A stretch of 64,000 bases of DNA, taken from contig OY763926.1 in assembly GCA_963667715.1 (NCBI GenBank), positions 2,654,177 to 2,718,176 on the forward strand, written 5' to 3'. The position numbers and the translations under genes are program-made. The notes under the pieces are model-generated. The model did no database searches and was not told the DNA's origin. It saw only the letters and a program-made list of their open reading frames with translations. Numbering within the stretch: position 1 is the stretch's first letter; every line of letters begins with the position of its first letter. Shown here piece after piece: positions 26,440 through 29,839 of this stretch. The DNA comes from Sedimentisphaerales bacterium. GTDB taxonomy: Bacteria; Planctomycetota; Phycisphaerae; Sedimentisphaerales; SM23-30.

Positions 26440-27258
26440 ATGAAGATAAAACTATCAATGTGTATTACAGCATTAACTTTAGCCAGTTCTCTGGTACAGG
26501 CGGGAATATATTCCGGTCCGACCGACATACTAAACGCTTATGATGGAGCAATAAGCAAATCTGACAGCTCTATTACCAACTGGGCCAATAGTGTCATCGA
26601 TTATTCGCCGGCACCGGGAGTAAGTGCAAGCTATCAGAACCCTGAAACCGGCTTTGGCTGTCTGGGCGACCTTTCAAGCGTTCAAATAGCAACTGGAATT
26701 TTACCTGGCTCGATAACCCTTGGCTTTGAATATGCGATCAGTAATGGAAACGGCGCAGATTTTGCTGTTTTCGAAAACGGTTTTGCCTACGGCAGTAACA
26801 GTGTATTCATGGAACTGGCATTCGTTCAGGTATCTACTGACGGCACAAATTACATTCAGTTTGATGCAATATCTACAAATACAGCTCCAACTACCGGCAG
26901 TGGCGCTTTCTCTGGCTGGGATACAACTAATGTATATAATCTCGCCGGTAAAAACCAGTCTGGCTGGGGCACACCGTTTGATCTGGACGAGCTAAGCAGT
27001 AATTCTCTGGTGCTGGACGGTACAGTTGACCTGAATAATATTCAGTACGTCAGACTTATTGACATTCCGGGAAATGGCTCATACCTGGACTCGCTGGGTA
27101 ACCCGATCTATGATGCATGGCAGACATCAGGATCAGGCGGCTTTGACTTCAGACTCTCTGAGGGAATTGGCGTTATAAATGAAGTACCAGAACCAGCAAC
27201 TCTTGCTATGCTGGGTATTGGTTCTCTGCTGTTCTCAAGAAGAAAAATTCGTTCATAA
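26440..27258 (+). CDS. Secreted PEP-CTERM-anchored protein of unknown function (paralog of 27987-29069)
   Basis: It has a signal peptide (…SSLVQAG). The C-terminal sorting signal is 'VPEPATLAMLGIGSLLFSRRKIRS' (PEP motif + TM + basic tail). The core blocks are 'GSITLGFEYAISNGNGADFAVFENGF' and 'AFVQVSTDGTNYIQF'. Confidence 0.85.
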   Translation: MKIKLSMCITALTLASSLVQAGIYSGPTDILNAYDGAISKSDSSITNWANSVIDYSPAPGVSASYQNPETGFGCLGDLSSVQIATGILPGSITLGFEYAISNGNGADFAVFENGFAYGSNSVFMELAFVQVSTDGTNYIQFDAISTNTAPTTGSGAFSGWDTTNVYNLAGKNQSGWGTPFDLDELSSNSLVLDGTVDLNNIQYVRLIDIPGNGSYLDSLGNPIYDAWQTSGSGGFDFRLSEGIGVINEVPEPATLAMLGIGSLLFSRRKIRS

Positions 27259-27280
27259 TATTCAATTGGAGAAATAAACA

Positions 27281-27919
27281 ATGTCACATAAAAAGAACTG
27301 GATAATAATAATGTTACTGACGCTATCAGCAAATCTTCTTGCTGGAGCTTACACTTTTGATACTGCAAGCGGTCAGTCTGTACTCGTCGATGTCGAATCA
27401 TGGTCTGGCACCGGCAGCAACGAAACGATACTGGTAGTAGACTGGAATCGCCTTGATAATGGTCTTGAAACGGTAAGCGAATCTCACGCTTTCGGCTATC
27501 GCTGGGATGGCAGCCAAACAGTTGCTGATATGCTGGATGTTTTTTCTAATGATGGCACCCTGGCAATTACAAGCGGGTACGGTGGAGCCTTTATATATAA
27601 CATTGGCTACTACGATGTTGCAGACGATGAAGTTCATATGCACATAGAAGAAGGGAGCTGGAACCTGGCAAGCACAGATAATGCCTACGCACAATGGGGA
27701 ACCTGGGGCAACTCTGAGTGGGACTTTAATACGGCTGGTATCGATGCAGAATATCTTACTGATGGCAGTTTTGAAGGAATAAATGCAATCACCTGGTTTA
27801 GTACGCTGCCGGATTACGCCGACGATCAGCTAGACATTCCGTTTGTAGTGCCGGAACCATTAACAGTTATTAGCTTGAGTGCTGGATCTTTACTTGCACT
27901 AAGAAGAAGGCAAAGATAA
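27281..27919 (+). CDS. Secreted PEP-CTERM-anchored protein with a DUF4430/transcobalamin-C-terminal-like sequence pattern
   Basis: It has a signal peptide and a C-terminal 'VPEPLTVISLSAGSLLALRRRQR'. The core 'ILVVDW ... TVADMLDVFS ... ITSGYGGAFIYNIGY ... WNL ... LTDGSFEGINAITWF' resembles the DUF4430 beta-grasp pattern. This is recalled from memory and not computed. GGAGA Shine-Dalgarno sequence upstream. Confidence 0.8.
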   Translation: MSHKKNWIIIMLLTLSANLLAGAYTFDTASGQSVLVDVESWSGTGSNETILVVDWNRLDNGLETVSESHAFGYRWDGSQTVADMLDVFSNDGTLAITSGYGGAFIYNIGYYDVADDEVHMHIEEGSWNLASTDNAYAQWGTWGNSEWDFNTAGIDAEYLTDGSFEGINAITWFSTLPDYADDQLDIPFVVPEPLTVISLSAGSLLALRRRQR

Positions 27920-27986
27920 TAATAATTATTCACCGGCAATAGTTCTCATGGATTATTGCCGGTATACCTCATTAAGAGTAATAACA

Positions 27987-29069
27987 ATGAAAAAGATTAT
28001 TTTACTTATACTAATATCAACAACAATCATCAGAGCCCAAATGCTAGAGGGCTATGCCAAATATACATATGATGAAAGTCATTTTGCTATTGAGATTGTA
28101 AACTATATCGAAGGTAACGGCGTTGGCAGAGACTATCTCAACGGGACAAAATTCAATATCCCTGAAAATGCTCTGGCCAGGCCAACCGTCGATACCACAC
28201 CAGATAACTGGTATATTAACCCGGCAGATGGCAATGTGCCAGTAAACCCAGTCTATCCGGCCTTCAGAGCCAGCGAATTAGTTTCAATCGGACAGGGAGG
28301 CGAGCTGATCGTTAAGTTTGACCATAAAATAGCAGACGATATCAACAACCCTTACGGTGTAGATTTCATTATTTTTGGCAACTCTATGTGTGTTGTCGGA
28401 AACGGTCAGGGCTGGACAAATCGCAATCCGGAATACTGCCGAATAAGCGGCGGCGGCTTTTGTGAAGGTGGTATAGTATCTGTCAGTCAAGACGGTGAGA
28501 ACTGGCTTGAACTAACAGCTGGAGATAATATTGCTGATGGCTTTGCCCCAACATTAGGGAGATTATATGAGCCGGAACTGCTGGAAAATGAACCGAATGA
28601 TGGACATAATGAGCTTGGAACATGGAATAAATGGTGGACATCAGAAACCAACCCTACCCTGCCGCTTGACCCGGAAGAAGATTTCACTGACTGGAACGGC
28701 TGGTCTGTAGCTCAACTGACTAATCATTATGGCTACTCCGCCGGCGGCAGCGGTTTTGACCTTAAATGCTTCAGAAACAGCCCAGAATGGATTCAATATA
28801 TAAAGGTAAGCAACCCTGCCAGTAGTGGTAATACCCCGGAAATAGATGCTTTTTCCGATGTAAGTTGCTGCGGTGACTGGCAAAACCCGTACCCAGAAGG
28901 TGACTATAATATGGACTGCCTGGTAAGTATGGATGACTTTGCTTATCTGGCTAACCGATGGCTGGCATGTCAGGAGAATACTGATCCTCAGTTAATAAAC
29001 TGCTATGATATGAATGACCTGTCTGATCTTGCAGAGAACTGGTTGGTTCGAAGCTGGGGAAATAATTAA
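27987..29069 (+). CDS. Secreted protein, paralog of 26440-27258, with a dockerin-like C-terminal repeat instead of PEP-CTERM
   Basis: The signal peptide 'MKKIILLILISTTIIRAQ' begins at ATG 27987. The ORF-track ATG 27948 lies inside a hairpin loop. The core is 'GGELIVKFDHKIADDINNPYGVDFIIFGNSM ... GGIVSVSQDGENWLEL'. The C-terminus is 'GDYNMDCLVSMDDFAYLANRW ... YDMNDLSDLAENW'. Confidence 0.7.
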   Translation: MKKIILLILISTTIIRAQMLEGYAKYTYDESHFAIEIVNYIEGNGVGRDYLNGTKFNIPENALARPTVDTTPDNWYINPADGNVPVNPVYPAFRASELVSIGQGGELIVKFDHKIADDINNPYGVDFIIFGNSMCVVGNGQGWTNRNPEYCRISGGGFCEGGIVSVSQDGENWLELTAGDNIADGFAPTLGRLYEPELLENEPNDGHNELGTWNKWWTSETNPTLPLDPEEDFTDWNGWSVAQLTNHYGYSAGGSGFDLKCFRNSPEWIQYIKVSNPASSGNTPEIDAFSDVSCCGDWQNPYPEGDYNMDCLVSMDDFAYLANRWLACQENTDPQLINCYDMNDLSDLAENWLVRSWGNN

Positions 29070-29839
29070 TGTGCTTCTGCAAAAATAGAGGCTTTACACT
29101 GCTGGAGCTGCTCGTTGTAGCTACTATTATATCGTTACTGGTAATGATAATCGCTCCTGCATTGAGTAATGCAAGGAATAGTGCAAGATCTGTAGTATGT
29201 ATGAGTAGGCTCAGGCAGTTGTCAATCGCTTCAATAAATTATACAGCTGCCAATAATGAGTATTATCCAATTGCATACTATAACCAAAGTACCTCAACAG
29301 AAATGGTATCGTATTGCTGGGATTTTATAAGTAAGAAAGACTGGAATGTTTCTCCTCCGGAAACTGAAATAACTCCCGGTTTATTATGGGCTTATACCGA
29401 CAGTGGCGAAGTACAGCAGTGTCCCGGATATCGGGGCAATAGCAACTGGCTGTCAGACCCTTATACTGGCTATAATTATAATACAAGCTACATTGGAGGT
29501 GGCAGCGGCGAAAGTACCATGCAGCCGGCAAAAGATGGACAGGTAAAACACCCTTGTGCAACACTGATCTTTGGGGATGGAGAATATGCCGGTGGTGCCA
29601 ATAAATTTATGAGAGCTCCGCAAAACCGCCCTGATGATAGATACCAAAAGGATAATAATTTTTCATTTAACAGCAGAGTTGCCGGCACGCAAGGGTTCAG
29701 ACATAACAAAAAAACAAATATCGCTTTTTGCGACAGCCATGTAAAGTCAACCGGTGATATCTACAGCGGCGGCCATGATGATCTGGCAGAAGGAACTGGC
29801 TTTATCTGTGATGATAACAGCATGTACGATCTTCGATAA
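29069..29839 (+). CDS. Prepilin-type N-terminal cleavage/methylation domain protein with a DUF1559-like body (type II pseudopilin-like)
   Basis: 'RGFTLLELLVVATIISLL' is the class III signal. 'HNKKTNIAFCDSHV' matches the H-X9-DG-type tail common in PVC bacteria. The start overlaps the previous stop (TAATG at 29067-29071). Confidence 0.9.
   Translation: MCFCKNRGFTLLELLVVATIISLLVMIIAPALSNARNSARSVVCMSRLRQLSIASINYTAANNEYYPIAYYNQSTSTEMVSYCWDFISKKDWNVSPPETEITPGLLWAYTDSGEVQQCPGYRGNSNWLSDPYTGYNYNTSYIGGGSGESTMQPAKDGQVKHPCATLIFGDGEYAGGANKFMRAPQNRPDDRYQKDNNFSFNSRVAGTQGFRHNKKTNIAFCDSHVKSTGDIYSGGHDDLAEGTGFICDDNSMYDLR

Follow-up and report, generated by a model that had tools for sequence, protein, structure and literature searches.

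The 64,000-nucleotide (nt) stretch of contig OY763926.1 from a Sedimentisphaerales bacterium (Planctomycetota), here called the window, carries a cobalamin riboswitch and, downstream of it, four tightly spaced genes on the + strand, open reading frames (ORFs) 1 to 4, which all encode secreted proteins. These genes probably form a corrinoid-repressed operon for extracellular capture of B12 that is built on two BtuH-type binders and adapted to the envelope of the Planctomycetes-Verrucomicrobia-Chlamydiae (PVC) bacteria. A capture module is the best explanation because of the riboswitch linkage kept in relatives, the homology of ORF1 and ORF3 to BtuH, the DUF4465 and BtuB-like neighbours found in related loci, a partner pattern in which a DUF1559 pilin-like protein stands against a TonB receptor, and the corrinoid use and secretin encoded in the window.

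A first-pass annotation, made from the letters of the sequence, had described the genes as an undescribed extracellular or surface B12-scavenging module without any known B12 gene. Capture outside the cell or at its surface stands, but two of the four proteins are BtuH-type and their domain is elsewhere fused to DUF4465 or found near BtuB-like receptors. The absence of known B12 genes holds at the level of library hidden Markov models (HMMs) and fails for ORF1 and ORF3 as remote BtuH homologs. The system is thus less new than first claimed, since its core binder is a remote BtuH. The novel part would be the link to a DUF1559 pilin-like protein, defined by the riboswitch, together with the breadth of an unannotated family and the fusions of BtuJ-like and BtuH-like domains. 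The literature searched, most subscription journals excepted, holds no link of a cobalamin riboswitch with PEP-CTERM or prepilin proteins or of BtuH with PVC phyla, and no account of B12 uptake in planctomycetes.

Linkage to cobalamin riboswitches

The RF00174 aptamer at 25852-25968 is the sole Rfam match in the window, and it precedes the four linked genes, which begin at 26440, as the first-pass annotation had it. Loci with homologs of ORF1 (numbered with the prefix L) were compared for the same arrangement. The 80 loci were those with the highest scores among 510 confirmed matches. They represent Planctomycetota, Verrucomicrobiota, Kiritimatiellia/Lentisphaerales, Cyanobacteria, Desulfobacterota, Myxococcota, Betaproteobacteria and others, with uncultured Planctomycetales and Anaerohalosphaeraceae as the closest relatives. 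Of the first 13 loci, 11 have an RF00174 match upstream of the gene and on its strand. A covariance model (R1) made from the trimmed alignment of those matches, and therefore trained on riboswitches from the same set of loci, finds a riboswitch in 64 of the 80, each time upstream and on the strand of the gene, in at least seven phyla. Rfam agrees with R1 at 18 of the 19 sites checked, and R1 scores the aptamer of the window at 111.8 bits (25843-25975). In about half of the 16 negatives the gene lies at or near a contig end, or in a longer operon cut by the boundary of the locus. Between riboswitch and ORF1 domain there are 150 to 3769 nt (median about 830), and the roughly 530 nt of the window are ordinary by this measure.

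The loci with homologs of ORF3 give the same picture. All six have a riboswitch by both R1 and Rfam, and some of them are without ORF1. Because cobalamin riboswitches are rare, with a handful per genome, the linkage to ORF1 goes far beyond chance. The expectation that orthologous operons would be preceded by such riboswitches was borne out in both sets of loci, and the comparison supports, at the level of sequence, the placing of the ORF1-ORF4 operon in the B12 regulon.

Some loci depart from the simple arrangement. In L056, from a metagenome-assembled genome (MAG) of Desulfospira, the strand of the gene carries, about 2 kb upstream, a cyclic di-GMP-I riboswitch (2856-2947, 45.6 bits) instead of a cobalamin riboswitch, a hint that some members of the family have moved to another regulon. 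L015, L026 and L032 have two riboswitch matches each and represent tandem riboswitch-controlled units within one locus. In L021, a Verrucomicrobiia locus, a match to the Acido-Lenti-1 small RNA (9476-9521, 42 bits) is found just 3' of the DUF1559 gene.

Relation of ORF1 and ORF3 to the BtuH domain

By the comparison of predicted folds and of sequence profiles, ORF1 and ORF3 are remote homologs of BtuH's B12-binding domain; corrinoid binding itself is predicted. The AlphaFold2 model of ORF1 (predicted local distance difference test score, pLDDT, 92.8) gave a single Foldseek match in the PDB with E below 0.001, 8blw_B (E 1.3e-5, probability 1.0). The model of ORF3 (pLDDT 89.6) had the same chain as its top match and the only one below 0.001 (E 3.2e-7, probability 1.0). 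Chain B of 8BLW is BtuG1/BtuGH of Bacteroides thetaiotaomicron, in which a beta-propeller is extended at its C-terminus by about 250 residues homologous to BtuH2 (PMC10404256). Without recourse to the models, an HMM of 26 diverse ORF1 domains also found 8blw_B as the best of 177,635 PDB sequences (residues 373-476, E 0.006). The matched residues follow the last propeller blade and the linker and are thus inside the C-terminal H-domain.

BtuGH was reached by sequence only with the more diverse ORF1 alignment, A5. Single-sequence and close-family profiles of ORF1 and ORF3 gave no match among the PDB sequences, and the family profile of ORF3 found dockerins only there, without BtuGH. In profile-profile comparison with hhalign, BtuH2 (7BIZ) and BtuGH together matched the ORF3 profile with a probability of 96.4% (E 1.3e-9) and the ORF1 profile with a probability of 88.7% (E 2.6e-6). 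The alignment on the BtuH side consisted of the BtuGH and BtuH2 (7BIZ) segments recovered from the PDB searches and a Bacteroides fragment; a protein-database search with the 104-amino acid (aa) BtuGH fragment yielded 8 fragments. What the first-pass annotation had offered as an analogy with the surface B12 binders of Bacteroides is, by Foldseek and hhalign, an actual remote homology to BtuH. Its description of ORF3 as a dockerin-tailed paralog of ORF1 was also correct, the two being distant paralogs (BLASTP E 3e-4; profile-profile probability 98.9%, E 1.4e-17). The C-terminal dockerin of ORF3 is of type I, with matches of the family profile to PDB dockerins at E 2.8e-4 to 0.01 and of PF00404 to many homologs. 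No cohesin partner for it was identified.

Three motifs are common to ORF1, ORF3 and BtuH: EY.PAPG, G..I.v.F...I.N..G.DF.v.(G/E)N and E(P/L)(G/A).V.VS.DG. The BtuH2 residues taken as criteria for the metal site and the corrin contacts were N399, E406, D522, S582 and E584, and Q333, H476 and Y510. N399 and E406 of the metal site and F401, a corrin-stabilising aromatic, lie in QGNAFDGSSEPGIVWV (7BIZ chain, +100 offset) and align with N113, E125 and F115 of ORF1, respectively. The three positions are invariant among the closer ORF1 homologs; in the diverse set N113 is invariant, E125 nearly so and F115 less conserved. The exact N-x-F-x4-E spacing is kept in some relatives of ORF1 (FENGFHSYVE in L035). 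The C-terminal half of the BtuH domain, with Y475, H476, Y510, D522, W577, S582 and E584, is outside the region aligned to ORF1 and ORF3.

ORF1 and ORF3 have ordinary signal peptides and PEP-CTERM or dockerin tails, with no lipobox cysteine. Because they do not have the lipoprotein character of BtuH, and because conservation of the binding site is partial, the ORF1/ORF3 system is set apart from plain membership of the BtuH group. No beta-propeller was found in ORF1 or ORF3, whose models are beta-sandwich or jellyroll-like and which have no propeller match in Pfam. Assignment of ORF1 to DUF4465 (PF14717) was rejected, with an hhalign probability of 0.2% against 42 DUF4465 domains and no Pfam match in any of ORF1-ORF4.

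The family to which ORF1 belongs is large and well conserved, with 1,671 clusters at 90% identity (E <=0.001). With the family profile, 2,091 representatives at 50% identity were found, and E was below 1e-30 for 958. Many of the 2,091 have several domains, with lengths of up to 2,697 aa. Pfam has no model for the BtuH domain or for the ORF1 and ORF3 families, and NCBIfam has none for the ORF1 family. In these two libraries ORF1-ORF4 match only sorting and pilin motifs, apart from a sub-threshold match of ORF1 to the LIC_13355 lipoprotein model.

The pilin-like partner

ORF4 matches N_methyl (E 2.5e-7), DUF1559 (PF07596, E 1.5e-5) and TIGR04294 (E 0.0026, just below the cut-off of that model), in agreement with its first description as a prepilin-type/DUF1559 protein. 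Its motif is H-X9-DS instead of H-X9-DG. The family profile matches the N-terminal helix of the PilA, geopilin and GspG pilins in the PDB with E from 1e-12 to 1e-6. The head domain is conserved and specific to DUF1559, with a Cys pair, GGYGYN, FRH...CDGH and DNS.YDL, and the PDB sequence search found no solved relative of it. The Pfam identifier SBP_bac_10 suggests a solute-binding protein like BtuF. This reading of ORF4 was set aside, with evidence neither for nor against it in the absence of a solved relative of the head domain.

The distribution of partners separates the PVC loci from the others. A DUF1559 gene is present in 44 of the 54 PVC loci and in 0 of the remaining 26, whereas a TonB-dependent receptor is present in 1 of the 54 and in 10 of the 26. 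In the PVC loci the DUF1559 gene holds the operon position that the BtuB-like TonB receptor has in the proteobacterial-type relatives. The DUF1559 partners form two subgroups, and the one that includes ORF4 spans Planctomycetota, Verrucomicrobiota, Kiritimatiellia and Lentisphaerales with similarity over the full length. Full-length ORF4 orthologs adjoin BtuH-like genes in all six ORF3-homolog loci (E 1e-65 to 1e-90), among which L085 represents the minimal conserved module of riboswitch, BtuH-like gene and DUF1559 gene.

The same observations bear on a sub-variant of the capture reading that differs only in the role of ORF4. In it, ORF4 and the other DUF1559 proteins are cargo-specific pseudopilins, like those of a type II secretion system, that only export or display the binders, and B12 crosses the outer membrane through an unlinked BtuB or a porin. 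The homology of the N-terminal helix to GspG and PilA, the translational coupling of ORF3 and ORF4 through TAATG, the close tracking of ORF3 by the ORF4 orthologs, the secretin gene in the genome and the presence of both a TonB-dependent receptor and a DUF1559 gene in L032 would all fit such pseudopilins. Against them stands the position of DUF1559 in the operon, which is that of the TonB receptor, and receptors are absent from 53 of the 54 PVC loci. PEP-CTERM proteins, moreover, are thought to be sorted by exosortase, with no need of a dedicated pseudopilin. Pseudopilins that serve export alone are on balance doubtful.

In Planctomycetes and their relatives, few families without a known function are as large as the DUF1559 pilin-like proteins. 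The literature searched, which had most subscription journals outside its coverage, mentions DUF1559 only in passing and assigns it no function. In the same literature no description was found of a riboswitch-controlled, ligand-specific DUF1559 subfamily tied to BtuH-like binders.

Neighbouring genes in related loci

In 37 of the 80 loci DUF4465 lies next to the ORF1 domain or is fused with it; the fusion proteins number 14. DUF4465 domains bind B12 in experiments, as found for BtuJ1, BtuJ2, D5EK51 and five further members (PMC13398666), and a relay from BtuJ to BtuH has been proposed for Bacteroides (PMC12751083, PMC13616437). The natural fusions of BtuJ-like and BtuH-like domains, as read from sequence, fit this relay model and would lend it independent support. 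PEP-CTERM is found on 88 of 824 DUF4465 proteins.

Receptors with Plug and TonB barrel domains are found downstream in 11 loci, and the operons of Betaproteobacteria, Desulfobacterota and Myxococcota continue into a TonB-dependent receptor. The BtuB model is the first or second-best NCBIfam match for five of the six receptors tested and the third for that of L032; none reaches the equivalog cut-off. Further genes in the cyanobacterial loci are those for MetE, CobW, DUF1636 and a PD40/RTX propeller protein. In L086 two cobalamin riboswitches, at 5616-5834 (+) and 11996-12182 (-), drive convergent operons. The + strand operon consists of a dockerin-tailed BtuH-like gene and a DUF1559 gene, and the other contains Peripla_BP_2 (BtuF-like), ABC_tran (BtuD-like), FecCD (BtuC-like) and CobA/BtuR genes. 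A complete set for capture and inner-membrane import is thus present in one 8-kb neighbourhood, without a TonB receptor.

Further variants of the locus were observed. In L032 one riboswitch precedes the TonB receptor and a second precedes a 1071-aa protein with the order DUF4465-DUF4465-BtuH-like, followed by the DUF1559 gene; the locus resembles the dual-riboswitch operon 1 of B. thetaiotaomicron. L059, from a Rubripirellula MAG, has at 2327-8143 a reading frame cut off where the contig ends. It encodes a giant protein that exceeds 1,938 aa and has one ORF1-type domain followed by three DUF4465 domains. Judged by its domains this would be a multivalent, putatively corrinoid-binding surface protein. 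Beta-propeller proteins recur in the riboswitch operons of L005 (5924-7333), L042 (5779), L027 (3361-4668) and L038 (2463-4148), and are of the PQQ_2 type with PEP-CTERM, BNR_4-like, or of the PD40 type with RTX repeats. By analogy they may be functional counterparts of the BtuG and BtuK propellers that bind B12.

Proposed mechanism and alternatives

At high intracellular cobalamin the aptamer at 25852-25968 would be bound, the terminator at 26043-26076 would form and transcription would stop. When cobalamin is scarce, transcription would read through the 364-nt leader into ORF1-ORF4. ORF1, with its PEP-CTERM/exosortase anchor, and ORF3, tethered by its dockerin, would then bind corrinoids at or beyond the cell surface, with ORF2 assisting as an accessory PEP-CTERM surface protein. 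ORF4, the conserved partner of BtuH-like proteins in PVC bacteria, would couple the binders to the envelope. It could do so as a pseudopilus subunit for display or export, by a pilus-type inward hand-off of the corrinoid, or as a membrane-anchored periplasmic acceptor.

Within the capture model, rough weights can be given to these routes. Export or display by a cargo-specific pseudopilin is tentatively preferred, an inward hand-off device that substitutes for the TonB receptor is somewhat unlikely, and a membrane-anchored periplasmic acceptor is less likely still. A wider proposal is that DUF1559 proteins in general are ligand-specific devices for crossing the envelope that do the job of TonB receptors in PVC bacteria. 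The ORF4 subfamily would take the corrinoid from the BtuH-type binders inward through a secretin, by a pseudopilus of the retraction type, as competence pseudopili do for DNA. The proposal is unlikely to hold in this form; if true, the cobalamin riboswitch would name the first defined ligand for any DUF1559 protein.

Several observations weigh against the capture reading. The 80 loci in which linkage was counted are the best-scoring matches and not a random sample. Five of them (L010, L043, L044, L056 and L058) have no cobalamin riboswitch despite ample upstream DNA, and L022 matches R1 (64.5 bits) but not Rfam at the gathering threshold. The template modelling scores (TM-scores) of the Foldseek matches to BtuGH, normalised to the query, are low (0.41 and 0.30). 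BtuH2 itself (7BIZ) is outside the 50 best Foldseek matches, and the next-best fold matches are carbohydrate-binding jellyrolls of the CBM32/discoidin type (E 0.004-0.1; above 0.01 for ORF1). Sequence homology to BtuH was compared over the N-terminal 110 or so residues of the domain only. Q333 and F334, which contact the corrin in BtuH2, are not conserved; the motif reads PAPGQF there against PAPGVS in ORF1. The operon of the window is without DUF4465, BtuB or BtuFCD, and its 364-nt leader, following a strong terminator, has room for an independent promoter such as the weak site at 26397-26424.

The secondary matches to CBM32/discoidin and the two unconserved contacts, taken together with the dockerin and PEP-CTERM tails, which proteins associated with polysaccharides or a matrix typically carry, would suit B12-regulated surface proteins of another kind. 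These would be jellyroll lectins or adhesins that do not bind corrinoids and that serve attachment to B12-producing partners or to polymers when B12 is scarce. Such a function is highly unlikely, as the best fold and profile matches are BtuH-domain proteins and not lectins, the domain is repeatedly fused to the B12-binding DUF4465 and lies beside BtuB-like receptors, and the riboswitch linkage is kept in at least seven phyla.

The room in the leader allows the further reading that the riboswitch of the window is an orphan or resembles a small RNA, stopping at its own terminator, and that ORF1-ORF4 are driven from within the leader. The strong terminator with a long leader after it, the weak promoter-like site and a structured hairpin at 26163-26190 could be understood in this way. 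A promoter of this kind is nevertheless most improbable. The order of riboswitch, leader and gene recurs in the 64 of 80 and six of six relatives over the whole range of distances given above (150-3769 nt), a leader of comparable length (387 nt) is found in the nearest relative, L081, and there is no other gene between the riboswitch and ORF1. Across 25600-30900 the total of promoter-like sites is no higher than the shuffled expectation.

Comparison with known systems

The capture reading places the operon beside BtuH1 (BT1488), BtuH2 (BT1956) and the H-domain of BtuGH (BT1490), surface lipoproteins of B. thetaiotaomicron with a globular B12-binding domain (PMC8941943, PMC10404256, PMC13616437). 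Apart from the remotely homologous domain, in which ORF1 keeps the N399/F401/E406 positions, the likeness extends to operons with a cobalamin riboswitch, in which a TonB receptor and a DUF4465/BtuJ gene are often present, to several paralogs per operon and to proteins that are secreted or directed to the surface. The differences are a sequence identity of about 12-27%, the lack of the Q333/F334 contacts in ORF1, and PEP-CTERM or dockerin anchors without a lipobox in place of lipoproteins; the location is presumed to be the same. A BtuG partner is absent, the PVC partner being the DUF1559 pilin-like protein, and instead of gut Bacteroidota the system has as its hosts Planctomycetota, Verrucomicrobiota, Kiritimatiellia, Cyanobacteria, Desulfobacterota, Myxococcota and Betaproteobacteria.

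The augmented beta-jellyroll binders of the BtuJ/DUF4465 group (PF14717; PMC13398666, PMC12751083) share with the present system the regulon, the operons and a presumed extracellular capture, but there is no detectable homology with ORF1 or ORF2 and no DUF4465 in the operon of the window. The BtuB-BtuG and BtuBFCD systems have the same logic of riboswitch-repressed uptake. An ORF1-type gene precedes a BtuB-like receptor in the proteobacterial, Desulfobacterota and Myxococcota relatives, and L086 has BtuF/C/D/R-like neighbours. Unlike these systems, the operon of the window and 53 of the 54 PVC loci have no TonB receptor, BtuG propeller or ABC transporter. With the DUF1559 (PF07596), GspG and ComGC pilin-like proteins, ORF4 shares the prepilin cleavage/methylation motif, the conserved helix and the H-X9-D motif; the DUF1559 family is restricted to PVC bacteria.

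To our knowledge, descriptions of B12 capture of the BtuH type are confined to Bacteroidota of the gut and a few Firmicutes. The present comparison indicates that in at least seven further phyla the B12 regulon has a remote BtuH branch as a near-obligate member. Several of these are dominant in the environment; the phyla are Planctomycetota, Verrucomicrobiota, Kiritimatiellia/Lentisphaerae, Cyanobacteria, Desulfobacterota, Myxococcota and Betaproteobacteria. B12 is a currency of microbial interdependence, and the operon hints at the route by which planctomycete-type bacteria acquire it. With a riboswitch that names the ligand, both B12 uptake in PVC bacteria and the purpose of the DUF1559 expansion become directly testable. 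The linkage also offers a practical rule of annotation for thousands of "hypothetical PEP-CTERM proteins".

Layout of the operon

The features of the operon are given in Table 1. The 22-nt gap with GGAGA, the hairpin in the second spacer and the TAATG overlap were all found as the first-pass annotation had described them. A convergent gene ends 5 nt past ORF4. No BtuB, BtuFCD, cob or metE gene is recognisable by Pfam in the operon.

Table 1. Features of the riboswitch-linked operon, with positions in the window
Feature	Position	Strand	Description
Sigma70-like promoter site	25798-25827	+	TTGACG-18-TATAGT with TG extension; 10/12 consensus positions
Cobalamin riboswitch aptamer, RF00174	25852-25968	+	Rfam 74.3 bits against a gathering score of 31.5; E 1.9e-16
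Intrinsic terminator	26043-26076	+	8-bp stem CCCATGCC/GGCATGGG, then T7; read from sequence
364-nt leader	26077-26439	+	Overlapping ORFs, all <=54 aa
Weak promoter-like site	26397-26424	+	9/12 positions
ORF1	26440-27258	+	272 aa; signal peptide; PEP-CTERM E 1.2e-5, above the Pfam cut-off
ORF1-ORF2 spacer		+	22 nt; contains GGAGA
ORF2	27281-27919	+	212 aa; weak PEP-CTERM (E 0.088)
ORF2-ORF3 spacer hairpin	27932-27941 pairs with 27954-27963	+	Perfect 10-bp stem; no T-run after it
ORF3	27987-29069 (ORF opens at 27948)	+	BtuH-like domain and C-terminal type I dockerin
ORF3-ORF4 overlap	29067-29071	+	TAATG; ORF4 start overlaps ORF3 stop
ORF4	29069-29839	+	256 aa; DUF1559 type IV pilin-like; H-X9-DG-type motif

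The sigma70-like site upstream of the aptamer is the best promoter-like site in 25600-30900, as a consensus match only. The terminator hairpin is present in both the minimum-free-energy and the centroid folds of 25828-26085. It is likely to be the expression platform of the riboswitch, judged from its sequence and position; the switching itself is predicted. The leader of L081, the nearest relative with DNA available, shares with the window a hairpin and a conserved AAATAAAAACTAA box just 5' of the start codon.

The shared hairpin, 26163-26190 in the window (AGGCATCGAC...GCCAATGCCC), has A6 directly 5' of it and aligns with that of the L081 leader (GGGGCGCTGAC...GCCACCGCCCC) with compensatory changes. 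Read on the - strand, the site also scores as a terminator of the intrinsic type, although no - strand gene reads into it. It may be an element for processing or stability of the leader, or a block to antisense transcription. A small ORF or a second RNA in the leader was looked for, and none was credible, as the ORFs do not exceed 54 aa and there is no other Rfam match.

The ORF of ORF3 opens within the loop of the spacer hairpin, and its start is ambiguous. The ATG at 27987 is the more likely start because a clean signal peptide, MKKIILLILISTTIIRAQ, is gained with it. P0121, the deposited product of 342 aa, has an even later start and no signal peptide, and is for these reasons probably mis-annotated.

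ORF2 belongs to a small family of secreted PEP-CTERM proteins that recurs in the operons of L001, L003, L007, L075, L081 (two copies) and L083, with distant members likely in those of L082 and L084. The first-pass annotation had counted two PEP-CTERM proteins. This is clear for ORF1; the match is weak for ORF2 itself but is found in nine of the ten members of its family. The ORF2 profile has no Pfam domain and no relative in the PDB beyond the PEP-CTERM tail. A relationship to DUF4465 or to ORF1 was ruled out by hhalign (probability 0.2% against the 42 DUF4465 domains). A weak exosortase match was seen in L082; no exosortase search was made in the window.

Other genes of the window

The corrinoid methyltransferase cluster reported in the first-pass annotation is real. 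It lies at 6604-10037 and encodes a URO-D-like methyltransferase, a CobW protein and a B12-binding corrinoid protein, by which the organism is a user of corrinoids. The methyltransferase gene (6604-8433) is of the URO-D type (MtaA/MtbA-like) and is fused to a thioredoxin-like domain, PF13192, with the CobW-type GTPase and the corrinoid protein following it. This composition is unusual for a methyltransferase system.

A secretin gene with Secretin and Secretin_N domains is found at 58521-60902, 29 kb from the operon, and is followed by a VWA-domain gene at 60906-61841. An outer-membrane conduit for a pilus or pseudopilus that the pilin-like ORF4 could use would thus be available.

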